From positions 83,891 through 147,890 of the forward strand of contig JADFNM010000001.1 of NCBI GenBank assembly GCA_022563395.1: 64,000 nucleotides of DNA, read 5' to 3'. The translations under genes were made by a program, and so were the position numbers. The number at the start of each line of letters is the position of its first letter. The stretch's first letter is position 1. Below the pieces are notes generated by a model. The model saw only the letters and a program-made list of their open reading frames with translations. It had not been told where the DNA came from and made no database searches. Of the stretch, positions 6,767 through 62,456 are shown piece by piece. This stretch comes from Patescibacteria group bacterium (lineage in GTDB: Bacteria; Patescibacteriota; Minisyncoccia; Minisyncoccales; UBA10102).

Positions 6767-6804
6767 TTTTGCTTTCCGATAACTTTTTTTGTTACAATAT
6801 ACCA

Positions 6805-7368
6805 ATGAACATTTTCCCCCACATCTTAAATAGGGGACTGGCCCACGTGGTAAGATTCAGCTCTATTCCCCAGCATTTTCCAGAGAGCGTGGCAGAGCAT
6901 TCCTTTTACACCGCTTACTATGTTTCCCTGCTCTGTGATATTTTGGAAAAAGCAGACATTGAGATAAACCGAGAGAAAGCAGTCACCATGGCTTTGATTC
7001 ACGACACAGAGGAGATGTTTTCAGGCGACATCCTCACTCCATTTAAGCATTATTCAAACGAGGTAAAAGAAACCATCCAAAAGGTGAACCGCGAGGTCAT
7101 CCCTCAGGTGTATGAGGGATTGCCAAAAGACATGAAAGAGAAATACATTGCCCTCTGGAATGAAGATTCAAATGGGGAGAGTATGGAGGCAAAGATAGTA
7201 AAAGTTGCAGACAGACTATCTCTACTTTCAAAGTGTGCTGAAGAGGTAAAGGTGGGAAACGGATACTTTGAGAATATTTACGAGAGCCAGTTGAAACTAC
7301 TTAAAGATTATGATGCTTCCTGGTGGCAGAAGATAAAAGAGCAGGTCCTCCCCAAGAGTGCTGCTTAA
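6805..7368 (+). CDS. HD-domain phosphohydrolase (YfbR-like 5'-deoxynucleotidase)
   Basis: ESVAEHS...LIHDTEE...VADRLS is an HD motif set. I prefer the ATG at 6805 because TGTTACAAT lies 6 nt upstream. The ORF track starts at a TTG at 6769. Confidence 0.75.
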   Translation: MNIFPHILNRGLAHVVRFSSIPQHFPESVAEHSFYTAYYVSLLCDILEKADIEINREKAVTMALIHDTEEMFSGDILTPFKHYSNEVKETIQKVNREVIPQVYEGLPKDMKEKYIALWNEDSNGESMEAKIVKVADRLSLLSKCAEEVKVGNGYFENIYESQLKLLKDYDASWWQKIKEQVLPKSAA

Positions 7369-7380
7369 ACGAGATTTAGG
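7364..7380. repeat. X2 hairpin unit CTTAAACGAGATTTAGG shared by two convergent gene ends
   Basis: It contains the TAA stop of the + gene (7366-7368) and the TAA stop of the - gene (7365-7367). Confidence 0.75.
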
Positions 7381-7658
7381 ATGCGCTGAGCTTCTTGCTT
7401 CAGGAGTGGTCCTTCGTATTCTCCACTGTGGGCAGAGCTGCCTTGGTAGGAAGGTTGTTTTTGGTCTAAATGAAGTTTAATGATTGCCTCGTCATCCGTA
7501 GTTGTGGCGTAGAGGTGAAATCGTGGGTATCTTCTGCCCGTAAGAGACCGAAAAAACCGGAGTTCACCGGTTCTGCTGTCTTGTCCGTCTGGGGCATACC
7601 TACATTTCCTCATGATATTGAGAAGGTGTTCCTTTTTAAGAGAGATTGTGAATTTCAT
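7365..7658 (-). CDS. Hypothetical conserved-looking small protein (97 aa)
   Basis: I chose the start at MKFTISLKK because the longer ORF-track start (7733) would overlap tRNA-Pro. I recognised no family. Confidence 0.45.
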   Translation of the reverse strand: MKFTISLKKEHLLNIMRKCRYAPDGQDSRTGELRFFRSLTGRRYPRFHLYATTTDDEAIIKLHLDQKQPSYQGSSAHSGEYEGPLLKQEAQRILNLV

Positions 7659-7692
7659 GTATAAACTGCTTGGCTTGATAAAATCACCCTTG

Positions 7693-7763
7693 TCGGGGAG
7701 CCGGGAATCGGACCCGGGCTGTACGCACCCCATGCGTACGTACTACCATTATACTACTCCCCG
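7693..7763 (-). tRNA. tRNA-Pro (anticodon GGG)
   Basis: Hand-folded cloverleaf: CGGGGAG/CTCCCCG acceptor, TACGC-ATGGGGT-GCGTA anticodon arm, CCGGG-TCCGATT-CCCGG T arm. No encoded CCA, and the T-loop has C at position 55. Confidence 0.8.
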
Positions 7764-7778
7764 TCATTTTTTAAGGTA

Positions 7779-7885
7779 TCCGCCTTCGGCGGACCCGGGG
7801 AAACCCTTCTTATGCCGTCGCCTCAGCGGCGACATGGCAAATTAAGGTAGGTTTCCCGCTAAAAACCACGCAGGTGGTTTTTAGC
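7779..7885. other. Cluster of three stable hairpins (possible terminator/ncRNA)
   Basis: The hairpins are TCCGCC-TTC-GGCGGA (7779-7793), a long imperfect hairpin (7798-7857) with apex GTCGCC-TCAGC-GGCGAC, and a perfect 12-bp hairpin GCTAAAAACCAC-GCAG-GTGGTTTTTAGC (7858-7885). Confidence 0.5.
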
Positions 7886-7922
7886 CCCCATGGACTTGTG
7901 CTGCCGTTGCACTATGCCCCGA

Positions 7923-8108
7923 TTATGTTTTTGCCAATGCCTTCTTGCATTTAGCACAAAGTTTCACGCGTTCTCCCGAAGCCAACTTTGCCCACTGGAG
8001 ATTGGGTTTCTGGATTCTCTTTACGGTAGGGTTGTACTTACCACGGAGCTTTACTAATCTCCAGGCAAGGTTTCTGCCTTTGCCGCACTGTGTACATCGC
8101 TGTGCCAT
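7923..8108 (-). CDS. rpmB: 50S ribosomal protein L28
   Basis: MAQRCTQCGKGRNLAWRLVKLRGKYNPTVKR... is a typical L28. Confidence 0.9.
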   Translation of the reverse strand: MAQRCTQCGKGRNLAWRLVKLRGKYNPTVKRIQKPNLQWAKLASGERVKLCAKCKKALAKT

Positions 8109-8116
8109 ATAACCAC

Positions 8117-8145
8117 AATATAGTATTTTGAAAGCTAAATGTCAA
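8117..8145 (-). promoter_or_regulatory. rpmB promoter TTGACA-17-TATATT, 8 nt before ATG
   Basis: Read on the minus strand: -35 at 8140-8145 and -10 at 8117-8122. Confidence 0.55.
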
Positions 8146-8254
8146 AATCTCTCGCTTCGCAAGATATGGCGCAGCCAGACAAATTCCAAACAAACTCAAA
8201 ATATTAAATACTAAATACTAGATACTAGATACAAAGTATGATAGAATAAGCCGT

Positions 8255-8878
8255 ATGGAATTTATATTCCTCATTGCTATCTTAATATTCTCTGTGGTAA
8301 TCCACGAAGTCTCCCACGGCGTTGTAGCCAATGCCCTAGGTGACCCCACGGCAAAGAATGCAGGAAGGCTAACCTTAAACCCCATTCCTCACTTAGATCC
8401 CATAGGTTCCATTCTCTTGCCGGGGTTTCTTATTTTAATGTCCCAGCTTGGAGGTGGGGGAATTATCTTTGGCTGGGCAAAACCGGTTCCGGTCAATCCC
8501 ATGAATCTTAAGGGGAAATATGGTTCTGCTTTGGTAAGCATAGCAGGGCCTGGTTCCAATCTTGCTATTGCCCTGATTTTTGGCTTGGCTCTGCGTTTTT
8601 TGCCTTTAGTAGAGCTCAATCCAGCTCTGGTCTTAATCTTTTCTTATATTGTCTTCTTAAACATCCTGTTGGCAATATTTAACCTCTTGCCTATTCCTCC
8701 CCTCGACGGTTCCCACGTTTTGTTTACCTTTCTGCCCCGTTCGTTTGACGCTTTGAGAATCTTTCTCTCCCGGTTTGGTCTTTTTGTCTTACTCTTTGTT
8801 ATTTTCTTTTTCTTTGGTTTTGTGTCTTATGTAGTGAACCTCATCTTTAGCCTTATTGTCGGTACCCCATTTTTCTAG
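8255..8878 (+). CDS. Peptidase M50 (site-2 protease family) membrane protein
   Basis: HEVSHG zinc motif, multiple TM segments, and NLLPIPPLDGSH. Confidence 0.8.
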   Translation: MEFIFLIAILIFSVVIHEVSHGVVANALGDPTAKNAGRLTLNPIPHLDPIGSILLPGFLILMSQLGGGGIIFGWAKPVPVNPMNLKGKYGSALVSIAGPGSNLAIALIFGLALRFLPLVELNPALVLIFSYIVFLNILLAIFNLLPIPPLDGSHVLFTFLPRSFDALRIFLSRFGLFVLLFVIFFFFGFVSYVVNLIFSLIVGTPFF

Positions 8879-12098: not shown

Positions 12099-12105
12099 AA
12101 GAACT

Positions 12106-12429: not shown

Positions 12430-12479
12430 ATAATTGCAATACTTAAGTAATAAATAAGAATTGATCGAAGAATACACAT

Positions 12480-14050: not shown

Positions 14051-14068
14051 CTAGAGAATTGCACTCAT

Positions 14069-14187
14069 CCTAAATGTAATTAAGGAATCCTTAGTTTCAT
14101 TTAGGAGATATGTGCAAGAATCAGTACTGCTTAAACGAGATTTAAGCAAACCAAAGAATCGCCAAACAGGCGGTTTTTTGGTAGAAT
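14069..14187 (+). repeat. Full composite intergenic repeat (palindrome A + tail + X2 + hairpin/T-tract/-10 module)
   Basis: Module A at 14069-14105, AGATATGTG at 14106-14114, CTTAAACGAGATTTAAG at 14130-14146, GGCGGTTTTTTGGTAGAAT at 14169-14187. Confidence 0.85.
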
Positions 14188-14193
14188 AAAAAT

Positions 14194-14907
14194 ATGAAGC
14201 TAGAGAACAAAACCGCATTAATAACTGGGGGTTCGCAAGGAATTGGTAAGGCTATTGCTGGGAGGTTTATTAGGGAAGGTGCAAAGGCCATAGTTTTTGA
14301 TGTTAAAAAGCCAGACTACGAGGCAGAATTTTATCAAGTCGATATACGAGAAGAAGAACAAATCAAAGCAGCTTTTGAACAAATCAAAAGTCTAGATATT
14401 CTCGTCAATAATGCTGGCGTTTACTTTGAGGAGGCGGTAGAGAGCACAACAAAGAAGCAGTTGGATGACATTGTTGATACCAACATTAAGGGGACGTATT
14501 TGATGTGCACGTATGGGATTCCGCTGATTAAGAATAGTAAGGGTACTATCATTAACATCTCTTCTGGGCTTGGGTTAGTCCCCGACCCAGCTGCTCCTGC
14601 ATATTGTGCAACGAAAGCCGCTATAACCATGCTCACAAAATGCATGGCACAGGAGTATGCTGCAGAAGGAGTAAGGATAAATGCAATTCTGCCTGGTCCA
14701 ATTGATACACCGATGTTGAGGAGTGTCTTTGCTTCTGAGAAAGAATTTGATGACTATGCGAAATCGAATCCACTAGGGAAAATTGGGAAAGTAGAGGATG
14801 TTGCAAATGTTGCAGCTTTTTTGGCATCAGACGAAGCAAGCTACGTAACTGGAAGTTTGTATACGGTTGATGGAGGAGAGTCTTCATCAAGCCTGCACTC
14901 TAAATAA
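14194..14907 (+). CDS. Short-chain dehydrogenase/reductase (FabG-like)
   Basis: TGGSQGIG cofactor motif, NNAG, and a YxxxK catalytic motif (YCATK). Confidence 0.85.
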   Translation: MKLENKTALITGGSQGIGKAIAGRFIREGAKAIVFDVKKPDYEAEFYQVDIREEEQIKAAFEQIKSLDILVNNAGVYFEEAVESTTKKQLDDIVDTNIKGTYLMCTYGIPLIKNSKGTIINISSGLGLVPDPAAPAYCATKAAITMLTKCMAQEYAAEGVRINAILPGPIDTPMLRSVFASEKEFDDYAKSNPLGKIGKVEDVANVAAFLASDEASYVTGSLYTVDGGESSSSLHSK

Positions 14908-26548: not shown

Positions 26549-26569
26549 AATCTGGTACAATAGGGCAAT

Positions 26570-27013
26570 ATGCAAGAAGCCTTGTTCACCTTTCTTGTTG
26601 CAGCTTCTCCGGTTGTAGAACTACGGGGGGCTATTCCCTTGGCTTTACTCGTCTATGAATTGCCTCTTTGGCAGGCTTTTTTCTTGTCTGTTGCAGGGAA
26701 TATGGTTCCGGTGCTTCTTTTGCCTTTTCTTGGAGCTTTGAGCGGTGAACTTTCGCGTCGCTTTTCCATCTTTGAGCGATATTTTACCTGGTTGTTCTCT
26801 AAAACAAGTAGGAACAAAAAGAGGATGTTTGAGATATTCCGGGATTTTGCCCTTGTGGTGTTTGTGGCAATTCCCTTGCCGTTCACCGGGGCTTGGACCG
26901 CCGTGGTGGCGGCGTTCGTGTTTGGGATTCCGTTTCGCCGGGCATTCCCTCTTATCCTGTTTGGGGTTATAATGGCCGCGATCATTGTGTCTCTACTGAC
27001 AACGCTATGGTAG
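26570..27013 (+). CDS. Small membrane protein, COG2426 / small multidrug export-like
   Basis: VELRGAIPLAL motif and 4 TM helices. Confidence 0.6.
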   Translation: MQEALFTFLVAASPVVELRGAIPLALLVYELPLWQAFFLSVAGNMVPVLLLPFLGALSGELSRRFSIFERYFTWLFSKTSRNKKRMFEIFRDFALVVFVAIPLPFTGAWTAVVAAFVFGIPFRRAFPLILFGVIMAAIIVSLLTTLW

Positions 27014-27115
27014 TATTAAAGGTAGCGGCCATTTTGTCCCCATAGTTAGTAAGGATTAGGGGACAATAATAGCTGGAGTTGTGGTAAGTATGATTACACT
27101 TGGTATACCAAAGCT

Positions 27116-27796
27116 ATGAAACCCATCATCATTGCAAACTGGAAAATGAATCCAGGTACTCTCAGGCAGGCAAAAACCTTGTTTTCTGCTGCACAGAAGG
27201 CAGCAAGATCAGGAAAGGTAGAAGTTGTGGTGTGTCCTCCTTATCCCTATCTTGCGGCCCTGCGCCAGATGACAAAAAAAGTTGCCCTGGGGGCTCAGAA
27301 TTGTTCCTGGGAGGACAAAGGTCCTCTCACGGGAGAGGTTTCCGCAAAGCAGCTCAAGGATATTGGATGCAGGTATGTCATTATAGGACATTCAGAACGA
27401 AAGAAGTACTTAGCTGAAACGTTGGGCATGACACGAGCGAAAGTCCAAGCTGCTTTAAGAGCGGGATTGAGTGTTATCTTGTGCGTTGAGAATGCGAGAG
27501 AGCTTCAGATGATAATGAAAAAAACCAAGAGTTTTAAAAACATTCTGGTGGTGTTTGAGCCGTCTTCTGCAATCAGCACGCAGGGAGGTACGCGTGTTAC
27601 GCCAGAAGATATTGCAAACATGGTTCAGACAATGAAAAAGGTGGCAGGAAGAAACGTTCCCGTATTGTACGGAGGGAGCGTGGATGCAAAAACCATCCGG
27701 CATATTCTCTTGCTGGGAAAGGTGCAGGGAGCTTTGGTGGGAGCTGCTTCCTTGGAGCCAAAGGAATTTGCCACCCTTGTCAAAAATGCGCTTTAA
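27116..27796 (+). CDS. tpiA: Triosephosphate isomerase
   Basis: IIANWKMN, IIGHSERK, YGGSV motifs. Confidence 0.92.
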   Translation: MKPIIIANWKMNPGTLRQAKTLFSAAQKAARSGKVEVVVCPPYPYLAALRQMTKKVALGAQNCSWEDKGPLTGEVSAKQLKDIGCRYVIIGHSERKKYLAETLGMTRAKVQAALRAGLSVILCVENARELQMIMKKTKSFKNILVVFEPSSAISTQGGTRVTPEDIANMVQTMKKVAGRNVPVLYGGSVDAKTIRHILLLGKVQGALVGAASLEPKEFATLVKNAL

Positions 27797-27814
27797 GAGT
27801 ATACTGGGTAGATT

Positions 27815-28327
27815 ATGGATGTTATATCTCAAGGAACATTTTACAACCCCACAAAAGGCCAAATGGATTTACAAGGGGTTCTCAGAGAACTTATAGGGTA
27901 TCTCAAGGAAAAACCAGAACGCTCCTATGAAATTATTGTAGGATGCGATTCTTCTGCTGTGGAAGAGCCCACCTTTCCCGTGGTTATTGTTGTCTTGCGC
28001 AAAAAGGAAGGAGGCAGGTTCTTTTTAACCAAAGTGAGATACCCCGCACCCCGCAAGTTCTACAACATCCATGACCGGATTTTAGAAGAGGTGCTCTTGT
28101 CTTGTCAGCTTGCTTTGTGGTTGAGAGAGAACTTTGCTCTTAAAGCAGAAAAAGAAGATCTTAAGGTGCCCTATGAGCTTCAGTACATTCATGCTGATGT
28201 GGGAGAAAACGGTGTAACCAGAGACATGATTAAGGAGGTGACAGGACTCATTCGGGGCAATGGATTTACTCCAATGATAAAGCCCCGATCCTTTGCTGCC
28301 TCTAGTGTAGCTGACCGCTTTTCCTAA
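27815..28327 (+). CDS. YkuK/DUF458-like RNase H-fold protein
   Basis: IIVGCDSS... and IHADVGENGVT resemble DUF458 motifs. Confidence 0.55.
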   Translation: MDVISQGTFYNPTKGQMDLQGVLRELIGYLKEKPERSYEIIVGCDSSAVEEPTFPVVIVVLRKKEGGRFFLTKVRYPAPRKFYNIHDRILEEVLLSCQLALWLRENFALKAEKEDLKVPYELQYIHADVGENGVTRDMIKEVTGLIRGNGFTPMIKPRSFAASSVADRFS

Positions 28328-29145: not shown

Positions 29146-29263
29146 CCTTAATGAAATTAAGGATTCCTAAATTTCATTAAGGAGATATGCGAAGAACCAT
29201 TAGCTCCTAAACGAGATTTAAGCAAGCCAAAGAATCGCTAGGAAGGCGGTTTTTTGATAGGAT
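29146..29263 (+). repeat. Full composite intergenic repeat
   Basis: An A variant at 29146-29182, AGATATGCG at 29183-29191, CCTAAACGAGATTTAAG at 29206-29222, GGCGGTTTTTTGATAGGAT at 29245-29263. Confidence 0.85.
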
Positions 29264-29270
29264 AGAGTGG

Positions 29271-31109
29271 ATGAGTAAAGAGAATAAGAAAGTTGAGTTC
29301 CCATTATTAGTATATGACGGAGATTGCACATTTTGTCGCGCATGGGTTGATTACTGGAAAAGTTTAACAGGAGATAGAGTTGCATATGCTCCTTTTCAAG
29401 AGGTAGCAGAACAGTTTCCAACAATCCCCCTCAAGGAATTTAAAAATTCGGTTCAGCTCATTACTCCAAAAGGAAAGATATACAGTGGAGCTCATGGGGT
29501 ATTTCGTACCTTGGCCTTGGGTAAGGCAGTAAAGTGGCTGCTTTTTATGTATCTTAGGGTTCCTGGTTTTGCATTCTTTTCTGAACTCTTTTACAGGATT
29601 ATTGCACGTCACCGCGGTCTTGCCTATTTTTTAACGAAAGTTTTTTGGGGAAAGCAGCTTATCCGTCCCTCATACATTCTTGTTCGGTGGCTCTTTTTTA
29701 GACTCTTCGGAGTCGTTTACCTTACTGCATTTATCTCGCTCTTCCTGCAGTTGTCGGGTCTTGTGGGGAGCAATGGCATTTTGCCTGCCAGCAATTTTTT
29801 GGAGGTACTGATAGATAATCTGGGACCCAAAGCCTTTTGGTTTTTTCCTACGGTAGCCTGGTTGAATGTAAGCGATCTATTTTTGCACCTGGTAGCCCTT
29901 GTGGGCGCAGTTTTATCACTCCTTCTTATCTTTGGGATAACCCGTACTCGTCTGTTGGCTGCCCTCTGGTTTTTGTATTTATCTCTTTTTACAGTTGGGC
30001 AGGTCTTTTTGTCATTTCAGTGGGATATTTTACTTTTGGAGGTAGGGTTCTTGGCCATACTCTTGACCCTGTCTCAAAATGTTATCTGGCTGTTTCGTTG
30101 GCTGTTGTTTAAATTTATCCTGATGTCTGGCGCAGTCAAGCTCTTAAGCGGGGATATTATCTGGAGAAATTTTACTGCCCTCAATTTTCATTATCAAACA
30201 CAACCCCTCCCAACTCCTTTTGCCTGGTATATGCACCAGCTCCCAGAATGGTTTCAAAAGTTTTCCGTTGGTTTTACGTTTTTTGTGGAACTTGGGATTG
30301 TGTTTTTGATTTTTGCACCCCGTCGCCTCAGACTCGTTGCAGCCTTTTTTATCGCAGGCAGCCAAGTCTTGATACTTTTGACCGGAAACTACACCTTCTT
30401 TAACTTCCTCACCATTATTCTTTGTGTGTTTTTACTTGACGACGCTTTTCTCAGCCGTATCTCTCCAAAGAAGTTTGCAGAAAGAATTGTCAAACGTTTT
30501 TCTCCACGAATCATACCGGGCCCCGGACAAGTTGCTTTAGCAACCATTGCCTTTGTCCTTGTGTTCTTCAGTATTCTTCAGATGACCCTCATGTTTTCTG
30601 GTTCCTTGCCAAGCTCAGCTCAAGGTATGTTGCGCATTATGCAACCTTTTCACATTGTGAATACCTATGGGCTGTTTGCAGTCATGACTACCTCAAGGCC
30701 AGAACTCATTATTGAGGGCTCCAATGATGGAGAGCACTGGCAAGAGTATGAATTCAAGTATAAACCAGGCGATCTGAGAAAACCACCTGGCTTCGTAGCT
30801 CCTCACCAGCCTCGTTTAGATTGGCAAATGTGGTTTGCGGCATTACATGCACAAAGAGCTTTGGAAAGTGGCATAGAAGAGGGGAGGTATAATCTATGGT
30901 TTGTAAACTTTATGGTTAGGCTACTGCAAGATTCTCCGCAGGTCTTAAAACTCTTGGCCAAAAACCCCTTTCCTGAATCTCCGCCACGCTATGTAAGAGC
31001 ATTGTTGTATGAGTACCAATTCACTGATTTTGATACGAAGAAGCGAGAGGGTACGTGGTGGAAAAGGGAATTGAAAGAAATATATCTTCCTTCTTTATCA
31101 TTGCAATGA
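29271..31109 (+). CDS. Fusion protein: DCC-type thiol-disulfide oxidoreductase (DUF393) + lipase-maturation-factor (LMF) family membrane domain
   Basis: N-terminus has VYDGDCTFCRAWV (DUF393). The rest is polytopic, with HQPRLDWQMWFAAL typical of LMF. Confidence 0.7.
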   Translation: MSKENKKVEFPLLVYDGDCTFCRAWVDYWKSLTGDRVAYAPFQEVAEQFPTIPLKEFKNSVQLITPKGKIYSGAHGVFRTLALGKAVKWLLFMYLRVPGFAFFSELFYRIIARHRGLAYFLTKVFWGKQLIRPSYILVRWLFFRLFGVVYLTAFISLFLQLSGLVGSNGILPASNFLEVLIDNLGPKAFWFFPTVAWLNVSDLFLHLVALVGAVLSLLLIFGITRTRLLAALWFLYLSLFTVGQVFLSFQWDILLLEVGFLAILLTLSQNVIWLFRWLLFKFILMSGAVKLLSGDIIWRNFTALNFHYQTQPLPTPFAWYMHQLPEWFQKFSVGFTFFVELGIVFLIFAPRRLRLVAAFFIAGSQVLILLTGNYTFFNFLTIILCVFLLDDAFLSRISPKKFAERIVKRFSPRIIPGPGQVALATIAFVLVFFSILQMTLMFSGSLPSSAQGMLRIMQPFHIVNTYGLFAVMTTSRPELIIEGSNDGEHWQEYEFKYKPGDLRKPPGFVAPHQPRLDWQMWFAALHAQRALESGIEEGRYNLWFVNFMVRLLQDSPQVLKLLAKNPFPESPPRYVRALLYEYQFTDFDTKKREGTWWKRELKEIYLPSLSLQ

Positions 31110-31217: not shown

Positions 31218-31382
31218 GTAAAGAAGAGTACATGCCGGGGAGTGGTCGCCCCCTGCACCTTGATATTTCTCATCTTGAGAACATGCCAAAAAAGAAAAAA
31301 GGCAAGAAGAAAAAGAAATAATATTTTTCTTGGAACAAAAAGAGAGAGCTGCAAAGTTACTCTCTTTTTGTTATTATGGTGT

Positions 31383-32114
31383 ATGAGCGGTAAACTTCGT
31401 CTTGCTCTTCTCATATCTGGGGGTGGGAGTACAACGCAAGCAATTATCCGGGCCTCAAAATCAGGACAACTTGCGGTGCAGCCCGTTTGTGTAATTGCGA
31501 GCACGAATGAAGCGGGGGGAATTAAGCTGGCTCTCAAAGAAGAGATTGCGCCAAAAGACGTTCTTGTTCTCAAACCCGAGGAGTATGTTTCCCCCGAAGC
31601 ATTTGGGGAAGCAATCCTTGCTGCGTGCAGGGCACGAGGCGTAGATATCATTGGGCAATATGGCTGGATGCCAAGAACTCCAGCGAATGTGATTGCGGCT
31701 TTTTTGGGCAGGATGATAAACCAACATCCAGGGCCGCTTGATCCTGGAAGACCTGATTTCGGCGGGAGAGGAATGTTTGGAAGGCGTGTTCATGCAGCGC
31801 GTCTCTGGTTTGTGCGTAAAACCGGGCAAGACTTCTGGACGGAAGCAACAGCTCAATTGGTCGCAGAGCAGTTTGACAAGGGAGCGCTTCTAAAAACTCA
31901 ACGACTTAAGATTCTGCCCGATGATGATCCTAAACTCCTGCAAAGGCGCCTTCTTTCAGTGGAGCATGAAGTACAGATAGCAACACTCCAGGATTTTGCT
32001 CTGGGGCAGGTCAAAGTACTCTTGCCCCGTAAGTATCCTCTTGTGCCTCCCGACAAGGAATCTCTTTTGAAAGAGGCAAAACAGATTGCATGCGCCCGCT
32101 TCCCGCATGGATAG
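31383..32114 (+). CDS. Formyltransferase-family protein (PurN-like)
   Basis: LALLISGGGSTTQAII...INQHPGPL resembles GAR transformylase. I chose the ATG at 31383, because the ORF-track N-terminus covers the leader. Confidence 0.55.
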   Translation: MSGKLRLALLISGGGSTTQAIIRASKSGQLAVQPVCVIASTNEAGGIKLALKEEIAPKDVLVLKPEEYVSPEAFGEAILAACRARGVDIIGQYGWMPRTPANVIAAFLGRMINQHPGPLDPGRPDFGGRGMFGRRVHAARLWFVRKTGQDFWTEATAQLVAEQFDKGALLKTQRLKILPDDDPKLLQRRLLSVEHEVQIATLQDFALGQVKVLLPRKYPLVPPDKESLLKEAKQIACARFPHG

Positions 32115-32159
32115 TAGAAGAAGTGACAGCGGGTGCGTTTTATGGCATAATCAAAAACC

Positions 32160-33215: not shown

Positions 33216-33223
33216 TTTGCCAT

Positions 33224-35148: not shown

Positions 35149-35177
35149 TTGATGAATTTCTCGATTTACTCTAGAAT
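35149..35177 (+). promoter_or_regulatory. Promoter TTGATG-17-TAGAAT, 6 nt before ATG 35184
   Basis: Hexamers at 35149-35154 and 35172-35177. Confidence 0.55.
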
Positions 35178-35183
35178 AGGACT

Positions 35184-40385: not shown

Positions 40386-41786
40386 CTATCGCACCACTTT
40401 TTCAGAAACAAAGAAGGTATCTTCGCTTAAAATGTAGAGGATGCCTTTTTCGTTATTCCAAAAGAATTCATGGTCAGAAAATGTGATAAGGTCCACAACA
40501 TTGAGTCGGTCCCGAGTATCGATTTCGGCTCCTCGTATGGTTTCTCCTAAACTGAAGAGAAGATAGGAGGAGTCAATCCAGGAAAGCTGCTGTGGGGGCT
40601 CTGAGAATCTTGTGAGGAGCACCAGCTCACCGGCCTGGTGCTGGGGCTGTTCGGTTTCCTCTTTTAAAAAGAGAACCCAAAGTTCTGACTGGTTGCGGAG
40701 TGCGACCTTGGCACCTCCCGGACCCACAGCTATTTCAAGAACGGGGGAAAGAACCTCACGCCGCTCTGAGACGCTTCTTTCATGGAGAAACAGCGCTGTG
40801 TCTTCTTTTATGAGTATGGCGTCTCCGGCAATCAATAGTTCGTAGGTAGTTTCACGTTTTGGCGTAAATACTGATTCTTGAAAAACCTGTGCCTCGCTGT
40901 CTGCATCAAGGTTTTTTTGCCACAGTGTACCATCGTTATCCAGCCAAAAAACATAAGTGCTATGGCTGGTAAAGGCCACCACATTATTTGCGATGGGGAC
41001 AGCCGATTTCTGCTCTCTGTATTGAGCCATAAACAGTGCCTTTGTTGTATTAAGGAATCTGGTAAAGAGTACTTGATTTAGTGTTGCGGGGGAAAATTGT
41101 ATATTTCCTATGCCCTGGTTAAGGTACTCCAAGCTGCAGGGGGCCTTAAAGCACGGTTGGTTAGCTGAGACATTGTGGATCTCAGAAACTAGCTGTTCTC
41201 CACGAGTGCTATGAAGCAAGAAGCGGCGGGAGTCCTTTGCCCATTGGATGTCAACGATTTCATCTTTTGAGCTGGCCCCGACCATTAAGGATTCTTTCCC
41301 CCCGGTTTCTAGGTTGAGAAGGTTAAGTTGCCAGGATGTTTTGGGCTCACGCTGCAAAAGCAGTGCATACTGTTTGTTTGGCGAAACCCAGAAGCGCTCA
41401 ACCTTATCTGCGAGTTTTTGAAACGCAGGGTTCTTTTTAAACAAGAGAATATTCTTTGCTTCAGTAACCTGCTGTTCTTTTATGTCAAGGATTTTTTGCC
41501 AGGAATGATATCCTTCTTTTGTAATTTCAAGAAAGTAGCTGCCGGGGAAAAAATTCTTGGTTAGCGCGGAACCAAAAAGGAAATCAGTTCTTTTAATATG
41601 GGTTCCGTCAACAATGATATCAGCTCTCGCGGGGGCGATCTTAAAGTAGAAAGCGCCTGTTTGAGTTATTCTTTTTTGCTGTATATCAATTCGATATCCT
41701 TGAGAGTACAGAGTAAGCGAGGGAGCGAGTATCAAAAAAAGACCAAGAAGCAAAAGAAACAACAGTGTACGTTGGCGTTTGGTCAT
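40386..41786 (-). CDS. Membrane-anchored PEGA-domain protein with beta-propeller-like C-terminal region
   Basis: N-terminal TM helix; PEGA-like ARADIIVDGTHI...PGSYFLEITKEGYHSWQ. Confidence 0.6.
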   Translation of the reverse strand: MTKRQRTLLFLLLLGLFLILAPSLTLYSQGYRIDIQQKRITQTGAFYFKIAPARADIIVDGTHIKRTDFLFGSALTKNFFPGSYFLEITKEGYHSWQKILDIKEQQVTEAKNILLFKKNPAFQKLADKVERFWVSPNKQYALLLQREPKTSWQLNLLNLETGGKESLMVGASSKDEIVDIQWAKDSRRFLLHSTRGEQLVSEIHNVSANQPCFKAPCSLEYLNQGIGNIQFSPATLNQVLFTRFLNTTKALFMAQYREQKSAVPIANNVVAFTSHSTYVFWLDNDGTLWQKNLDADSEAQVFQESVFTPKRETTYELLIAGDAILIKEDTALFLHERSVSERREVLSPVLEIAVGPGGAKVALRNQSELWVLFLKEETEQPQHQAGELVLLTRFSEPPQQLSWIDSSYLLFSLGETIRGAEIDTRDRLNVVDLITFSDHEFFWNNEKGILYILSEDTFFVSEKVVR

Positions 41787-41794
41787 AATGCTCT

Positions 41795-41823
41795 ACTATA
41801 TGCCAAAAAGTGCACCTTGTTAA
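41795..41823 (-). promoter_or_regulatory. Promoter TTAACA-17-TATAGT, 8 nt before ATG (minus strand)
   Basis: Minus-strand reading: -35 at 41818-41823 and -10 at 41795-41800. Confidence 0.5.
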
Positions 41824-46784: not shown

Positions 46785-46877
46785 CTTAAACGAAATTTAA
46801 GCACCCTTAATTTCATTAAGGATATATGCGTTTATCTTAAAACAAAGAATCGCAAACAGGTGGTTTTTTGGTAAAAA
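46785..46877 (+). repeat. Rearranged composite intergenic repeat
   Basis: CTTAAACGAAATTTAAGC at 46785-46802, CCTTAATTTCATTAAGG+ATATATGCG at 46805-46830, AACAAAGAATCGC...GGTGGTTTTTTGGTAAAAA ending at 46877. Confidence 0.8.
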
Positions 46878-46883
46878 GAAGAT

Positions 46884-47621
46884 ATGAGATTTGAGAAGTG
46901 GCACGGTCTTGGGAACGACTTTATTCTTTTGGATTGCCGGGTCAACGATATCCCAAATAAAAAGGCACTTGCTATCAAACTTTGTGATAGGCACTTTGGC
47001 ATTGGGGCAGACGGCCTTGTATGTATCTTACCGAGCATTGTGGCAGATTACACAATGGAGATTTTCAACCCAGACGGGAGTGAGGCTGAAATGTGCGGGA
47101 ACGCAATTCGCTGCGTTGCAAAGTTGCTCAAGAAATCTCCTGTGACTATTGAGACTTCATCTGGGATAAAAGAATGTGTTGCGCAAACGGATGGTTCAGT
47201 CAAGGTTAATATGGGAAGCCCCTTAAATATTAAAAAACAAGGCAGGTTTACAACCCTCTCTATGGGTAATCCTCATGCAGTTCTCTATGTAGACAACTTT
47301 GACTTTGATTGGAAGCAAGAAGGAGAAAAGATTGAGAACAATAGAGAGATGTTTCCAGAAAGAACAAATGTAGAGTTTGTGAAAATACTCAACGACGATA
47401 CCATCCGGGTGAAGGTATGGGAAAGGGGAGCTGGCGCAACGCTTGCATGTGGGACAGGAGCATGTGCTTCTATTGTAGCGGCTGTAATCGATAAAGGTAT
47501 TCACCGGGATGTCAACGTAGAACTACCTGGAGGAAAGCTGTTCGTGTCTTGGTCTGAATCTGGAGATGTTTACATCACAGGGCCGGCTGAGAAGGTTTTT
47601 GAAGGAGATTTGGTTTTATGA
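46884..47621 (+). CDS. dapF: Diaminopimelate epimerase (short form)
   Basis: FEKWHGLGNDFILLD, GNPH, ACGTGA catalytic Cys motifs. Confidence 0.88.
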   Translation: MRFEKWHGLGNDFILLDCRVNDIPNKKALAIKLCDRHFGIGADGLVCILPSIVADYTMEIFNPDGSEAEMCGNAIRCVAKLLKKSPVTIETSSGIKECVAQTDGSVKVNMGSPLNIKKQGRFTTLSMGNPHAVLYVDNFDFDWKQEGEKIENNREMFPERTNVEFVKILNDDTIRVKVWERGAGATLACGTGACASIVAAVIDKGIHRDVNVELPGGKLFVSWSESGDVYITGPAEKVFEGDLVL

Positions 47622-47765: not shown

Positions 47766-47817
47766 TATAACTCTTATGGGGCTTTTCTTTTTTAAAAAAA
47801 TATGTATAGTGGAAAAT

Positions 47818-49065
47818 ATGCGGCAGTCAGAACTCTTCAGTAAAACCCAGAGGAGTCTTCCAAAAGACGAGGAAAGTACCAATGCCAAGCTCCTTTTACG
47901 CTCAGGCTTTGTGCATAAGGAAACGGCAGGAGTATACTCGTTCTTGCCTCTTGGACTTAAGGTATTGAACAACATTATTTCCATTATTCGGGAAGAGATG
48001 AATGCCATTGGGGGGCAAGAGGTCTTTTTGTCCTCGCTTCAAGGCCCTGAAGTCTGGCGCAAATCGGGAAGATGGGATGATAAGATTGTGGATGTATGGT
48101 TTAAGACCAAGCTGAAAAACGGTGGAGAGCTTGGTTTGGCAAACACACACGAGGAAGCCCTAACCGCTCTTCTTTCCCACCATGTTTCCTCGTACAAAGA
48201 TTTGCCCTTGTTGGTGTATCAATTCCAAACAAAGTTTAGGAACGAGACACGGGCAAAGAGCGGTCTCATGAGAACCCGAGAGTTTATCATGAAAGACCTT
48301 TATTCCTTTGCTCGTACCTTAAAAGAACATGAAATGCTGTATGGAAAGGTAATTGAGGCCTATAAAAAGATATTTGAACGTATTGGCATTGGAGAAAAAA
48401 CCTTGTTTACTTTTGCTTCGGGCGGAAGCTTTTCAAAATATTCTCATGAGTTTCAAACATTGTGCTCTGCGGGTGAAGATACCATTTATATATGTGGGCA
48501 CTGCAAGGTTGCAGTAAACAAGGAGATTATTAAAGAACAACCATCCTGCCCCCAGTGTGGCAATCAAGAGCTCAAAGAGGAGAGTGCAGTGGAGGTGGGC
48601 AACATCTTTGCTCTGGGCACCAAGTATGCTGAAATCTTGGGCCTTGAGTACTTAGATGAAAATGGTAAAAAAATACCCGTGGTTATGGGAAGCTATGGCA
48701 TTGGACCAGGACGCGTTATGGGCAGCGTTGTGGAACTCTTTCACGATGAGAGAGGTATGATTTGGCCCGAGTCCATAGCTCCCTTTAAGGTGCATCTTCT
48801 TTCTTTGCCTGGGGGCGAAGAAGAAAGCGATAAAGTATATAGCTCATTACAAAGAGACGGGATTAAAGTCCTATATGATGATAGGGCAAATGTATCACCC
48901 GGCGAAAAATTAGTAGATGCTGATCTCTTTGGTATTCCCTGGCGTGTCGTGGTTTCAGAAAAGACTGTTGCGGTAGATTCTGTTGAGGTAAAAAAACGAA
49001 ATGAAGAAAAAGCAGAGTTGATAAAACAAAAAGATATTGCAAAGTTTCTTGCAAAAAATACATGA
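47818..49065 (+). CDS. proS: Proline--tRNA ligase (compact, zinc-ribbon insert instead of INS domain)
   Basis: MRQSELFSKTQRSLPKDE...AGVYSFLPLG, and CGHC...CPQC. I prefer the ATG at 47818 because TATAGT lies 7 nt upstream. Confidence 0.88.
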   Translation: MRQSELFSKTQRSLPKDEESTNAKLLLRSGFVHKETAGVYSFLPLGLKVLNNIISIIREEMNAIGGQEVFLSSLQGPEVWRKSGRWDDKIVDVWFKTKLKNGGELGLANTHEEALTALLSHHVSSYKDLPLLVYQFQTKFRNETRAKSGLMRTREFIMKDLYSFARTLKEHEMLYGKVIEAYKKIFERIGIGEKTLFTFASGGSFSKYSHEFQTLCSAGEDTIYICGHCKVAVNKEIIKEQPSCPQCGNQELKEESAVEVGNIFALGTKYAEILGLEYLDENGKKIPVVMGSYGIGPGRVMGSVVELFHDERGMIWPESIAPFKVHLLSLPGGEEESDKVYSSLQRDGIKVLYDDRANVSPGEKLVDADLFGIPWRVVVSEKTVAVDSVEVKKRNEEKAELIKQKDIAKFLAKNT

Positions 49066-54508: not shown

Positions 54509-54520
54509 ATTTCAATGGTT

Positions 54521-54566: not shown

Positions 54567-54595
54567 GTTCTCATATTTTTGTGGATAACTTCCTC

Positions 54596-54624
54596 TTGAT
54601 TTTAAAGGGATTTTAAGGTAAAAT
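54596..54624 (+). promoter_or_regulatory. Promoter TTGATT-17-TAAAAT, 6 nt before pheS ATG
   Basis: Hexamers at 54596-54601 and 54619-54624. Confidence 0.55.
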
Positions 54625-54630
54625 TAAGCC

Positions 54631-55677
54631 ATGGTACATAGCCTCAAAGCCCTGGAAATAACGGCAAAAAAAGACATCAACAAGGCTAAAACCCTCAAAG
54701 CATTAGATGGGGTTTTTCGTGTGTATTTAGGTAAAAAAGGCGAGCTCACCCAGTTGTTAAAATCCCTTGCAAAGCTCAAGGTAACACAAAGAAAAAAACA
54801 GGGGAAAGCAGCTAACGCGCTAAAAGAAAAGATTCAAAAGTTGGTTCAGAACAAAACACAGGAATTACAAAAGAAAGAAGCTTCTGTTGTTGAACAAGGA
54901 GAGTGGCTGGACATTACAATGCCAGGGAGAAAGATTGAGCAAGGCCATGTGCATCCTTTAACGCAAGTGCACAGAAAAGCGCAGGAGATCTTTCGTTCTA
55001 TGGGTTTTGCGGTGGCCGAAGGACCAGAAGTTGAAAGCGAATGGTATAATTTTGATGCTTTGAATATGCCTCCTGACCACCCAGCAAGAGAAATGTGGGA
55101 TACCTTCTGGTTAAAACAAAAGGAGCGCTCAAAAAACACCAAGGAAAACTTTCTTTTGAGAACCCATACCAGCCCGGTACAGATTAGGTATATGCAGCAG
55201 CATAACCCACCCTTGCGCATTATTGCACCAGGTCGTGTGTTCCGTTATGAGGCGACAGACGCAAGGCATCAGATTAACTTTTACCAACTGGAAGGGCTTA
55301 TGGTGGGAAAAGATGTTTCGGTAGCCAATTTCCGTGCCATGATCCAAGAATTTTACCAAAAGTTCTTTGGAAAAAAGATTACGGTCAGGCTCCGCCCCAG
55401 CTATTTTCCCTTTACCGAGCCCTCTTTTGAAGTAGATATGACCTGTGTGGTGTGTATAGGAAAGGGATGCAGTTCTTGCGGCCACGGTGGATTCATGGAA
55501 ATGATGGGGGCTGGTATGGTGCATCCCAACGTATTCAAGGCAGCAGGATACAACCCCAAAAACTGGCAGGGTTTTGCCTTTGGCATGGGGATAGATAGGT
55601 TGGCAATGATGAAATACAAGGTGGAGGATATTCGCCTCTTTTATACCAAAGATCTAAGATTCCTCCAGCAATTCTAG
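54631..55677 (+). CDS. pheS: Phenylalanine--tRNA ligase alpha subunit
   Basis: HPLTQV..., class II motifs (FRYE...R, GxGxGxxR: GFAFGMGIDRL). Confidence 0.94.
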   Translation: MVHSLKALEITAKKDINKAKTLKALDGVFRVYLGKKGELTQLLKSLAKLKVTQRKKQGKAANALKEKIQKLVQNKTQELQKKEASVVEQGEWLDITMPGRKIEQGHVHPLTQVHRKAQEIFRSMGFAVAEGPEVESEWYNFDALNMPPDHPAREMWDTFWLKQKERSKNTKENFLLRTHTSPVQIRYMQQHNPPLRIIAPGRVFRYEATDARHQINFYQLEGLMVGKDVSVANFRAMIQEFYQKFFGKKITVRLRPSYFPFTEPSFEVDMTCVVCIGKGCSSCGHGGFMEMMGAGMVHPNVFKAAGYNPKNWQGFAFGMGIDRLAMMKYKVEDIRLFYTKDLRFLQQF

Positions 55678-59892: not shown

Positions 59893-60437
59893 TGCCAAAA
59901 CAGCAAACAATACAAGAGCGAAATTGGTATGTTATTCACACGTACTCTGGATATGAAGACGCCGTAGCTCGTTCTCTCAAGCAAAGGATTGAATCTCTTA
60001 GCATGGAGGACAAGATATTTCAGATATTGGTTCCAAAGGAAAAAAAGATTAAGATAAAGTCAGGAAGGCGCCGAACCGTAGAAGAGAAAATCTATCCTGG
60101 ATATGTGCTGGTAGAGATGATTGTGACCGATGACTCGTGGTATGTGGTTAGAAATACCCCCAACGTTACCGGGTTCGTGGGAGCTGGAACCACCCCCATT
60201 CCCGTTTCTAAAGAGGAGATTGACTACTTAAAAGAACGCATGGGTCAAGAATCCCCACAGTACGACATTAGTGTGGCAGAGGGAGATGCGGTAAAGATTA
60301 TTGATGGCCCTTTTAAGGATTTTGACGGTAAGGTTTCAGAGATTGACCAAGAGCGGGGAAAGATAAAAGTGCTGGTAAATATGTTTGGTCGCGATACCCC
60401 CGTAGAGCTGGATTCGCTTCAGATACAGAAGTTATAA
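59892..60437 (+). CDS. nusG: Transcription termination/antitermination factor NusG
   Basis: WYVIHTYSGYE (NGN) and a KOW motif (GDAVKIIDGPFKDFDGKV). Confidence 0.94.
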   Translation: MPKQQTIQERNWYVIHTYSGYEDAVARSLKQRIESLSMEDKIFQILVPKEKKIKIKSGRRRTVEEKIYPGYVLVEMIVTDDSWYVVRNTPNVTGFVGAGTTPIPVSKEEIDYLKERMGQESPQYDISVAEGDAVKIIDGPFKDFDGKVSEIDQERGKIKVLVNMFGRDTPVELDSLQIQKL

Positions 60438-60454
60438 TTATATTTATTGGGTTT

Positions 60455-60880
60455 ATGGCAAAAAAAATAAAGGCGCAAATAAAGTTACACATTAAGGCAG
60501 GGGAGGCGACTCCCGCTCCTCCTGTTGGTCCGACGCTGGCCCCTCATGGACTGAACATAGGGGAGTTTTGCCAGAAGTTTAACGATGCTACCCGTGAAAT
60601 GAAGGGATTCAAGATCCCAGTAGATATTGTAATTTACGGAGACCGGAGCTATGACTTTACAGTCCACCAACCTCAAGCCTCAGAGCTTTTAAAACGTGCT
60701 GCAGGTATTGAGAAAGGATCTGGTCAACCCAATAAACTGAAAGTTGCAAAGATAAGTAAGACGCAACTGGAAGAGATTGCAAAACAGAAAATGCCGGATC
60801 TCAACACAGACAATCTTGAATCTGCCGTAAAAACTATTGAAGGAACCGCAAAAAGCTTAGGCATAGAAATAATCTCATAG
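60455..60880 (+). CDS. rplK: 50S ribosomal protein L11
   Basis: IKLHIKAGEATPAPPVGPTLAPHGLNI... Confidence 0.95.
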   Translation: MAKKIKAQIKLHIKAGEATPAPPVGPTLAPHGLNIGEFCQKFNDATREMKGFKIPVDIVIYGDRSYDFTVHQPQASELLKRAAGIEKGSGQPNKLKVAKISKTQLEEIAKQKMPDLNTDNLESAVKTIEGTAKSLGIEIIS

Positions 60881-60888
60881 TACGCATT

Positions 60889-61467
60889 ATGATACTGTCT
60901 GACCGAGACATTAAAAAGTCCATCCAGGAAGGGAAAATCATTATGTCCCCAGCCCCCAACTATGAAGAGCAGCTGGGGCCTTGTTCTTTGGACCTTCATT
61001 TAGGTAACGTCATGAAGGTATTTAAGACCACCTCCTATCCTTATCTGGACTTAAAGCGGGAAATCAATTTTGAAGAGTTGATGGATGAAATCACGGTAAA
61101 AGAGGGGGATCCCTTTGTGTTGCAGCCGGGAGCCTTTGCCCTGGCAATAACCAGAGAGGAGTTTACTCTCCCAGACGACATCATGGGGCGCTTGGACGGC
61201 AGGAGTTCCCTTGGACGCCTTGGCATTGTGGTGCATTCCACCGCAGCCCGTTTTGACCCAGGGTGGTCAGGAAAAGCTGTCATGGAATTGGGAAACCTTG
61301 GGCCAAGTCCGGTCATCTTGTATGAGGGCATGAGAATTTGCGCCTTAACCTTTGAAACGTTAACCTCTCCTGTTGAGGAATCCTACGCCAAAAGCAGCAA
61401 GCGAAAATACTCGCACCAACAAAAACCCCAGGCAAGCAAGATAAACAAAGAATTTAGCGAAAGTTAG
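60889..61467 (+). CDS. dcd: dCTP deaminase
   Basis: MILSDRDIKK...CSLDLHLG...GRLDGRSSLGRLGI. Confidence 0.88.
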   Translation: MILSDRDIKKSIQEGKIIMSPAPNYEEQLGPCSLDLHLGNVMKVFKTTSYPYLDLKREINFEELMDEITVKEGDPFVLQPGAFALAITREEFTLPDDIMGRLDGRSSLGRLGIVVHSTAARFDPGWSGKAVMELGNLGPSPVILYEGMRICALTFETLTSPVEESYAKSSKRKYSHQQKPQASKINKEFSES

Positions 61468-62420
61468 GTCGACTTTTTGACCTCCTCCTTTTCATACAGT
61501 CCTCCTGCCACCGTGAGTTCTCCCTTGATGGCAGGGTAGGGATCGTAGTTTTCCAATGATACAAGATCTGGATGGAAATCATCCAGCTCTTTTATTTTAG
61601 GATCCAATATAACGTGCGGGAAAGGTCTTGGTTCTCTTTTTAGTTGTTCTTTGACCTGTTCAACATGATTCTCATAAATGTGGGCATCTCCAAAAGTATG
61701 TATAAATTCACCAGGTTTCACCCCCAGGATTTGGGCTAATACTTTTGTAAGCAAAGCATAGCTTGCAATATTAAATGGGACTCCTAAAAAGAGATCAGCT
61801 GATCTCTGATAGAGTTGAAGATAGAGTTTCCCACCTTTCAAGGATATTTGATACATATTGTGGCAAATAGGAAAACGGGAAGCATCCTCTTCTTGCGCCA
61901 TTGTATAGAGGTATTCGGGGTTCCATGAGGTAACAATGGCATTCCGAGCAAAGGGGTCTTCTTTAAGCTCATCTACAATCCATTGAAGTTGGTCTATAGT
62001 ATCGCCTCGTTTGGTGGGCCATTTTCTCCACATCTCCCCATATATTCGAGGAAGTTCTCCATGTTCTTTCGCAAATTCTTGGTCCTGTGCGATTTTGGCG
62101 ATGAATTCTTCTTTGGAAAGTTCTGGAACACCCTGTTTTTGGGAGTAAATCTTGTAGGGATAATCATCCCAGATATGAACATTGTTGTCTACTAAGTATT
62201 TAATGTTGGTTTGGCCAGTCAAGAACCAATAAAGCTCATGGAGAACCCCTTTCCAGTACACTTTCTTAGTGGTTAAAAGAGGAAATCCCTCTGTAAGGTC
62301 ATAGCGGATTTGCCTGCCAAACACACTCCAGGATTTGGCTCCAGTACCCCTGTCTACGTTTTCTGTGCCTTTCTCAAGGACCTCTTTGAGCAAGTTGAGA
62401 TATTGGTATTCCGGATGCAT
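61464..62420 (-). CDS. thyA: Thymidylate synthase (ThyA)
   Basis: YLNLLKEVLEKG...DRTG-like, LPICHNMYQ (catalytic Cys), DAHIYENH. I chose the ATG at 62420 because TATAGT lies 6 nt upstream. Confidence 0.92.
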   Translation of the reverse strand: MHPEYQYLNLLKEVLEKGTENVDRGTGAKSWSVFGRQIRYDLTEGFPLLTTKKVYWKGVLHELYWFLTGQTNIKYLVDNNVHIWDDYPYKIYSQKQGVPELSKEEFIAKIAQDQEFAKEHGELPRIYGEMWRKWPTKRGDTIDQLQWIVDELKEDPFARNAIVTSWNPEYLYTMAQEEDASRFPICHNMYQISLKGGKLYLQLYQRSADLFLGVPFNIASYALLTKVLAQILGVKPGEFIHTFGDAHIYENHVEQVKEQLKREPRPFPHVILDPKIKELDDFHPDLVSLENYDPYPAIKGELTVAGGLYEKEEVKKST

Positions 62421-62426
62421 TATGAT

Positions 62427-62456
62427 ACTATAGCAGAGACAAATAATGCGGGTCAA
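62427..62456 (-). promoter_or_regulatory. thyA promoter TTGACC-18-TATAGT, 6 nt before ATG (minus strand)
   Basis: -35 at 62451-62456 abuts the repeat tail; -10 at 62427-62432. Confidence 0.5.

Follow-up and report, generated by a model that had tools for sequence, protein, structure and literature searches.

How does a bacterium choose its translation starts when the sequence upstream of its genes offers no Shine–Dalgarno (SD) pairing? The question is raised by a stretch of 64,000 nucleotides (nt) of contig JADFNM010000001.1 (the window, by which we mean the whole stretch analysed), in which an initial annotation had noticed that many genes following an intergenic gap have a good -10 hexamer only 6-9 nt before the ATG, with no room for an SD motif between the two. 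We propose, with a probability of roughly three in four, that the window comes from a bacterium of the Candidate Phyla Radiation (CPR) with SD-independent initiation, in which about a third of the transcription units are driven by leaderless-type sigma-70 promoters, i.e., promoters whose mRNAs would begin at or next to the AUG.

The window has a G+C content of ~45%, with nearly all genes on the + strand, and holds the str/S10/spc/alpha ribosomal-protein clusters, several aminoacyl-tRNA synthetases, gatCA, gyrB and secE-nusG-rplK. Its PheS is best matched (81% identity) by a metagenome-assembled genome (MAG) labelled 'uncultured bacterium', and then, at ~50-57% identity, by Patescibacteria (CPR) MAGs labelled Saccharibacteria, Harrison-, Azam-, Wolfe-, Colwell-, Liptonbacteria and Paceibacterota; judged by sequence, the host is thus a Parcubacteria/Paceibacteria-like CPR bacterium (Patescibacteria). 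Gene identities were taken from public calls, annotated with Pfam, for metagenome contigs of identical sequence. With L36 and a DUF5679 gene added, and the starts of S12 (8964), S7 (9418), S19 (17672), L16 (19122), L2 (16884) and a purN-like gene (31383) corrected from N-terminal sequence, the curated map comprises 79 protein genes.

Promoters abutting start codons

All 16 sites of the initial annotation match the sequence exactly in their hexamers, extended -10 motifs (TGn), -35 boxes and spacings of 6-9 nt. The purN-like gene at 31383 adds a case beyond that list, with TGTTATTAT 5 nt upstream. The spacings given below run from the end of the hexamer to the start codon.

6790..6807, + strand, HD/YfbR-like hydrolase: TGT-TACAAT (hexamer 6793-6798), 6 nt, ATG 6805; preceded by a T-run
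8106..8145, - strand, rpmB (bL28): TTGACA (8145-8140), 17 nt, TATATT (8122-8117), 8 nt, ATG 8108
8239..8257, + strand, M50 protease: TGA-TAGAAT (8242-8247), 7 nt, ATG 8255
14153..14196, + strand, SDR: cassette with hairpin AATCGCC-AAACA-GGCGGTT, T6 run, TGG-TAGAAT (14182-14187), 6 nt, ATG 14194
26553..26572, + strand, small multidrug-export-like gene: TGG-TACAAT (26556-26561), 8 nt, ATG 26570; internal promoter, the map gene lying 21 nt upstream
27101..27118, + strand, tpiA: TGG-TATACC (27104-27109), 6 nt, ATG 27116; weak hexamer, another (TATGAT) 21 nt upstream
27777..27817, + strand, RNaseH-like (DUF458): TTGTCA, 17 nt, TATACT (27800-27805), 9 nt, ATG 27815; possible start ATG 27863
29229..29273, + strand, DCC1/LMF1 fusion: second cassette copy, TGA-TAGGAT (29258-29263), 7 nt, ATG 29271
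31369..31385, + strand, purN-like formyltransferase: terminator hairpin, TGT-TATTAT (31372-31377), 5 nt, ATG 31383
32123..32162, + strand, mnmA: GTGACA, 17 nt, TGG-CATAAT (32146-32151), 8 nt, ATG 32160
33208..33226, + strand, alaS: TGA-TATAGT (33211-33216), 7 nt, ATG 33224; internal promoter at best
35149..35186, + strand, hypothetical 417-residue gene: TTGATG (35149-35154), 17 nt, TAGAAT (35172-35177), 6 nt, ATG 35184
41784..41823, - strand, 466-residue membrane/PEGA-like gene: TTAACA (41823-41818), 17 nt, TATAGT (41800-41795), 8 nt, ATG 41786
46841..46886, + strand, dapF: third, decayed cassette copy, TGG-TAAAAA (46872-46877), 6 nt, ATG 46884; weak hexamer
47805..47820, + strand, proS: TATAGT (47805-47810), 7 nt, ATG 47818
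54596..54633, + strand, pheS: TTGATT (54596-54601), 17 nt, TAAAAT (54619-54624), 6 nt, ATG 54631
62418..62456, - strand, thyA: TTGACC (62456-62451), 18 nt, TGC-TATAGT (62432-62427), 6 nt, ATG 62420

This arrangement is strongly enriched at genes. A -10 match ending 5-9 nt before the start codon is present at 17 of the 79 curated genes as against 4.1% of 1,943 other ATGs (p=1.6e-8), and when the 40-nt upstream region of each gene was shuffled within itself, 17 matches were reached in one of 2,000 trials (mean 7.1). The matches are concentrated at spacings of 6, 7 and 8 nt (5, 4 and 5 genes, respectively), with about one per spacing elsewhere, so that the peak of -10 hexamers near starts that the initial annotation implied is indeed present. 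A scan blind to the genes recovered 77 strong promoter-like sites; 14 of these lie 5-9 nt before a start, where ~0.2 are expected, 4 at 10-30 nt and 11 at 31-200 nt. Relative to the ~47 genes that are not tightly coupled to an upstream gene, the 17 with this geometry amount to about one third, as counted over 64 kb.

The hexamers also carry promoter features that are independent of their position, as had been claimed for them. Of the 16 hexamers at 5-9 nt, 8 have TG at the extended -10 position, compared to 8.7% of 983 hexamer matches (p=2e-5), and the best match to TTGACA at a distance of 16-18 nt averages 4.06 of 6 positions for them as opposed to 2.50 (p=2e-7). Further, immediately upstream of the HD, SDR, LMF1, purN-like and dapF promoters is a hairpin followed by a T-run, i.e., a terminator, such that at these sites terminator, promoter and ATG are compressed into ~45 nt.

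Other units of the window are leadered, with sigma-70 promoters of the form TTGACA-17 at S12, secE and L3, TTGACA-16 at tuf and TTGACT-17 at infA, while a tRNA cluster has TTGATT-17-TGG-TATTGT; among the leaderless-type sites, rpmB combines a perfect TTGACA with a 17-nt spacer. The perfect or near-perfect promoters of the leadered units indicate that the promoter consensus of this host is the canonical one. The leaders of the large translation-apparatus units measure 15-166 nt, and most genes with leaderless geometry encode housekeeping enzymes and synthetases, with rpmB in addition. Hence, the geometry can be termed pervasive in the sense of about a third of the transcription units, but the term does not extend to the main ribosomal-protein and tuf units, which use leadered promoters.

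The region upstream of tuf (12286-12480) is itself unusual. Downstream of a perfect TTGACA-16-TATAAT, a 38-nt unit terminating in TATAAT is repeated in tandem, in 3.2 identical copies that may be stacked promoters. The repeat corresponds to a run of N in the public scaffold L001, suggesting that assemblers break there.

The same geometry in relatives

In 66 Patescibacteria loci, for which genes were called mechanically as the longest open reading frame (ORF) of at least 90 residues, the 527 first genes display a -10 peak at 6 nt, with 61 matches over a baseline of ~10. The 88 first genes of a Chloroflexi-type outgroup have no -10 peak and do have an SD peak. Among the relatives' genes, those with the geometry start with ATG in 87% of cases versus 71% (p=9e-7), and carry TGn in 21% versus 5.6% (p=6e-15).

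The gene pheS offers a direct comparison: upstream of it, 27 of the 63 Patescibacteria loci have their best -10 match at 5-9 nt and a further 11 have it at 10-13 nt, while 13 of the 14 outgroup loci lack a passing hexamer within 35 nt and the remaining one has its match at 30 nt. As the intergenic DNA of these loci is unalignable, the geometry is kept by function rather than inherited as sequence. For the other leaderless genes, synteny was too poor to follow conservation gene by gene, the only genes in common being those adjoining pheS.

Absence of a Shine–Dalgarno signal

The initial annotation had left SD usage, including that of internal operon genes, and the 3' terminus of 16S ribosomal RNA (rRNA) as points to be inspected, and both, the latter as seen in a relative, agree with SD-independent initiation. 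Within the window, SD-like 4-mers at spacings of 4-11 nt occur at 8 of the 79 genes versus 9.7% of control ATGs, i.e., with no enrichment, internal operon genes included, and the predicted pairing to the canonical anti-SD is even weaker upstream of genes (-2.24 kcal/mol) than at control ATGs (-3.09 kcal/mol). The test itself can register the signal: in the Chloroflexi-type outgroup loci the corresponding values are 30% versus 12%. No rRNA gene was found in the window, and L029, a Wolfebacteria-like relative, is the only one of the 91 fetched loci to hold a 16S 3' end. Aligned to the end of the Rfam model, this 16S reads GGAAUAAUUAAAUU where GGAUCACCUCCUUU is expected; it contains no CCUCC and thus lacks the anti-SD.

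The 62 genes without leaderless geometry have an A-rich start context, position -3 being A in 58% of them and position -1 a pyrimidine in 87%. A search upstream of these genes for a ribosome-binding motif other than the SD returned just this A-richness and words derived from stop codons (CTAAC, TAGT). Genes are also tightly packed: 30 of the 72 same-strand junctions do not exceed 5 nt, the commonest values being -4 and +1.

A plausible mode of initiation, and what weighs against it

RNA polymerase usually starts ~7 nt after the -10 hexamer, with a preference for a purine, so that mRNAs from the above promoters are expected to have as first nucleotide either the A of the AUG itself or one lying 1-3 nt upstream. 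Taking these observations together, we advance the following plausible mechanism. First genes would be transcribed from sigma-70/sigma-A promoters of the TTGACA-17-TATAAT type, often with TGn, whose hexamer ends 5-9 nt, mostly 6 nt, before the ATG. Initiation on such mRNAs would be of the leaderless type, with direct recognition of the 5'-terminal AUG by the ribosome. The downstream genes, which mostly lie -4 to +5 nt from the preceding stop, might be translated by termination-reinitiation coupling, with which this packing fits. The remaining genes, prominent among them the ribosomal-protein, tuf, infA and secE units, would be read from mRNAs that have leaders and, upstream of the start, A-rich sequence lacking an SD motif.

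Several points weigh against this reading. The local-shuffle background is fairly high (7.1 expected against 17 observed), and hence a few of the single sites may be due to chance. The distance from the -10 hexamer to the transcription start differs by 1-2 nt among bacteria. The hexamers are not uniformly good: of the 16 initially listed sites, 14 score at least 4.7 bits when a sigma-70 -10 weight matrix is applied, but those of dapF (TAAAAA) and tpiA (TATACC), which lack the near-invariant last T, fail. The alaS hexamer shares bases with the mnmA stop codon, and a further weight-matrix match, at the 172-residue gene at 51845, was rejected outright because its hexamer is the gatA stop codon. 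Nor do all sites precede the first gene after a gap, as had been supposed: alaS, the RNaseH-like gene, gene 26570 and mnmA have internal promoters in gaps of 8, 18, 21 and 45 nt, respectively, where, with no terminator in between, upstream read-through would also yield leadered copies. Finally, with no 16S gene in the window, the loss of the anti-SD in this organism is deduced from motif statistics and from a relative of ~52% PheS identity.

The foremost alternative holds that leadered transcripts, arising by read-through or from farther promoters, dominate, and that the TA-rich hexamers are an A/T-rich 'Kozak-like' context rather than active promoters. The A-richness and the -3 and -1 preferences of the genes without leaderless geometry are in line with it, as are the matches that local composition yields by itself and the four genes in short terminator-free gaps. 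However, composition can produce neither the sharp 6-8 nt peak, nor TGn exactly 1 nt before the hexamer (50% versus 8.7%), nor -35 boxes at 16-18 nt. Moreover, the HD, SDR, LMF1, purN-like and dapF genes sit right after their terminators, and at the divergent pairs rpmB/M50, 41786/42086 and thyA/62508 read-through from an upstream gene is impossible. Thus, we consider this explanation unlikely.

A bolder version of leaderless-type initiation can also be envisaged, namely that an anti-SD-less branch of Patescibacteria abandoned 30S/SD-guided initiation entirely and retained just two loading modes, 5'-terminal AUG and termination-reinitiation, with an A-rich leadered minority for the translation-apparatus operons. 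We regard this as conceivable but doubtful. If true, this branch would be the bacterial lineage nearest to the haloarchaeal regime, and would offer a natural test bed for leaderless initiation as the ancestral or default mode.

Intergenic repeats and the promoters they carry

The gaps before first genes of the window also house repeats. The most conspicuous is a palindromic repeat of ~57 nt with at least 10 copies, each consisting of a near-perfect 17-bp hairpin (CCTAAATGAAATTAAGG-n3-5-CCTTAATTTCATTTAGG) and an oriented tail, AGATATGCG, that points toward the downstream gene, the distance from its end to the next ATG varying from 13 to 212 nt. Copies of the 57-nt repeat are located at:

14062-14118
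28357-28413
29139-29195
35029-35085
41977-42033
46778-46834
47713-47769
52808-52864
54514-54570
62455-62511

The family looks like the repetitive extragenic palindromic (REP) elements. It is found in contigs of the same organism and is absent from all 80 relatives' loci; in a scan of JGI metagenomes it was not found, three unrelated chance matches being returned. The repeat is often trailed by a second short hairpin module (TGCTTAAACGAGATTTAAGCAAACC), which occurs at:

14128-14155
15030-15057
29204-29231
35094-35121
47677-47704
others at 5362, 14951, 18372, 41913, 46785 and 63065

The stretches 29146-29241 and 35036-35131 are 92% identical across 96 nt, and the three-hairpin composite folds with z = -5.4.

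A third repeated element is a terminator-promoter cassette (AAAGAATCGCC..GGCGGTTTTTTGGTAGAAT) that joins terminator hairpin, T6 run, extended -10 and ATG, with three copies:

14153-14196, upstream of SDR
29229-29273, upstream of LMF1
46841-46886, upstream of dapF

The promoter at SDR, LMF1 and dapF has been propagated with a repeat, and the dapF hexamer has decayed; as copies of one cassette, these three are not independent cases. Such terminator-promoter-ATG modules of ~45 nt could be employed as parts for gene expression in the first Patescibacteria amenable to genetics.

These repeats invite a second alternative, that the promoter-like sequences are passengers of a spreading, species-specific intergenic repeat family with little bearing on expression. 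It can draw on the common cassette of SDR, LMF1 and dapF and on the presence of the palindrome in the same gaps, but the cassette accounts for only 3 of the 17 promoters, with the rest in unique sequence at variable distances from the palindrome, and relatives devoid of the repeats show the same geometry. Hence, we hold it to be highly improbable.

Two further elements lie close to the listed sites. A 45-nt direct repeat, 89% identical between its copies (GATAAGTAGGTCAT..CTTAGAGGGCGGGGTTT; 4411-4455 and 6725-6769), is located just upstream of a metallo-beta-lactamase-fold gene and of the HD hydrolase promoter, respectively. Between rpmB and tRNA-Pro (7764-7905, - strand) is a GC-rich stretch of 142 nt, with a fold of -66.5 kcal/mol and z = -5.4. 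When GC-rich stretches beside tRNA genes were compared with Rfam, no family was matched, and 7764-7905 had no match even at E<=1; this stretch could represent a small RNA not yet described or else a long leader of the tRNA.

Assignment of start codons

The distances considered above depend on the start codons, which are ATG in 78 of the 79 curated genes. In most cases the choice is narrow, because the reading frame opens just 3-12 nt before the chosen ATG. Several lines of evidence support the chosen starts: (i) the N-termini are typical of their families in TpiA (MKPIIIANWKMN), DapF (MRFEKWHGLGNDF) and MnmA (...VAMSGGVDSS), and likewise in AlaS, bL28, ThyA and ProS; (ii) in solved ProRS chains, residue 1 aligns with the Met at 47818 rather than with the upstream ATG 47776; (iii) in solved ThyA chains, residue 3 aligns with residue 16 of the 330-residue long ORF (TTG 62456), which is three residues past the Met at ATG 62420 and fits that start; (iv) Pfam models begin 3-20 residues downstream of the chosen ATG in the HD, purN-like, trxB-like and small-export genes. 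Specifically, the start of the YfbR-like model agrees with ATG 6805 and disagrees with the upstream TTG, and position 2 of Formyl_trans_N aligns at residue 66 of the purN-like long ORF, 5 residues past ATG 31383. The RNaseH-like start is ambiguous between 27815 and 27863, since the second ATG (+48 nt) still precedes the Pfam domain.

In curating the map, the TTG starts of L16 and L2 and the long ORF starts of S7, S19, S12 and the purN-like gene were rejected. From the public gene calls for contigs of identical sequence, rpsL (8964-9374) is missing altogether, and their starts for S7, S19, the purN-like, HD and RNaseH-like genes conflict with canonical N-termini or with one another; for the same DNA they give 187 or 199 residues for HD, 122 for the RNaseH-like and 243 for the purN-like protein. 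Such discordance is what start prediction trained on SD sites would be expected to produce in a genome that does not use them.

The differing public calls at HD, RNaseH-like and purN-like, together with the second RNaseH-like ATG, could be taken to mean that starts are mis-assigned, and that the true ones lie downstream of ordinary promoters with 5' untranslated regions. Against the family-typical N-termini of TpiA, DapF, ThyA, ProS, AlaS and MnmA, the fit of the solved ProRS and ThyA chains, the positions of the Pfam models and the ORFs that open just upstream of most chosen ATGs, this explanation is scarcely tenable. As for the possibility that TA-rich hexamers fall next to start codons by chance at ~45% G+C, it has nothing in its favor beyond the background of 2-4% per ATG, is rejected at the scale of the window by both the control ATGs and the local shuffles, fails to account for the replication in 527 first genes of relatives, and can be regarded as negligible.

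Other features of the window

Certain departures in gene order and content accompany the ribosomal-protein clusters. rplK is followed by dcd in place of rplA (uL1), rplJ and rplL (60455-61467); the SDR gene, with its own terminator-promoter cassette, is inserted between rpsJ (S10) and rplC (L3) (13706-15227); and the L5-S8 interval (21329-21477) has no S14 ORF. The end of fusA is overlapped by an ORF of 80 residues at 12070-12312 (+ strand; 68 residues from ATG 12106), whose own end falls within the promoter region of tuf. Three public contigs annotate this ORF as a gene; it matches no Pfam family and is a candidate gene only. For the 466-residue gene at 41786, no record was found among the public contigs.

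Comparison with known systems

The leaderless mechanism itself is known, and leaderless mRNAs are discussed in PMC10568206. One parallel is the archaeal leaderless transcription of GeneMarkS-2 'group D' (Haloferax, Sulfolobus), which likewise combines many leaderless first cistrons with little or no SD; however, it depends on a TATA box/B-recognition element (BRE) at about -26, whereas the window has bacterial -10/-35 promoters. Among bacteria, the Mollicutes (Mycoplasma pneumoniae), though of a different phylum, resemble the present case in their small genomes, reduced reliance on SD and some leaderless transcripts, and they possess extended -10 promoters. In Bacteroidetes, the sigma-A factor recognises TAnnTTTG, the anti-SD sequence is kept and -10 boxes abutting starts are not characteristic, in all of which they differ from the present reading. 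Their likeness lies in the SD-independent initiation described for Flavobacterium johnsoniae with a 'Kozak-like' context (PMC6847099): the non-leaderless genes of the window, too, lack SD and are A-rich upstream, with the above-noted preference for A at -3.

Nearest in phylogenetic terms are the Parcubacteria lacking the anti-SD. Tsurumaki et al. 2022 (PMC9297842) report that roughly half of Parcubacteria have lost it, a set that overlaps with those devoid of uL1, and in PMC10783764 the SD-scarce organisms without CCUCC include Ca. Wolfebacteria and Campbellbacteria. The window belongs to the same region of the tree, has no SD signal and has a relative (L029) with an altered 16S tail; within its 64 kb, rplK (uL11) is followed by dcd and not by rplA (uL1). 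In the text available of PMC9297842 and PMC10783764, these studies treat the rRNA/SD side only and contain no promoter or leaderless analysis of the CPR, the word 'leaderless' occurring 0 times in that of the former. Our literature search on leaderless transcription in Patescibacteria, CPR, Saccharibacteria or Parcubacteria found no relevant description, and thus none of leaderless promoter geometry in the CPR. The present reading would link the reported anti-SD loss of Parcubacteria to a concrete alternative, namely promoters that place AUG at the 5' end together with tight coupling of cistrons.

In its promoters, the window comes closest to GeneMarkS-2 'group C' (PMC6028130), comprising Actinobacteria (Mycobacterium tuberculosis, Streptomyces) and Deinococcus-Thermus (D. 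deserti) with frequent leaderless transcription. In this group, a Pribnow box lies 6-8 nt from where the first gene starts in 25-50% of operons, with AUG strongly preferred (PMC6028130). The -10 peak of the window at 6-8 nt before first genes has the same modal spacing, and its 17 of ~47 non-coupled genes are a comparable measure. The promoters differ in that those of the window are full sigma-70 promoters, with TGn and -35 boxes, whereas mycobacterial promoters are mostly -10-only (TANNNT). Further, Patescibacteria are not among the lineages highlighted in PMC6028130, and group C keeps the anti-SD and SD sites for its other genes, whereas in the window SD is at background for all genes. The window is thus group C-like for its first cistrons and an atypical member for the lack of SD elsewhere. 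If confirmed, this would mean that SD-tuned gene finders misplace starts in such genomes, making a leaderless/-10 model advisable for CPR annotation, and would add the CPR to Actinobacteria and Deinococcus-Thermus as lineages in which leaderless transcription is frequent.

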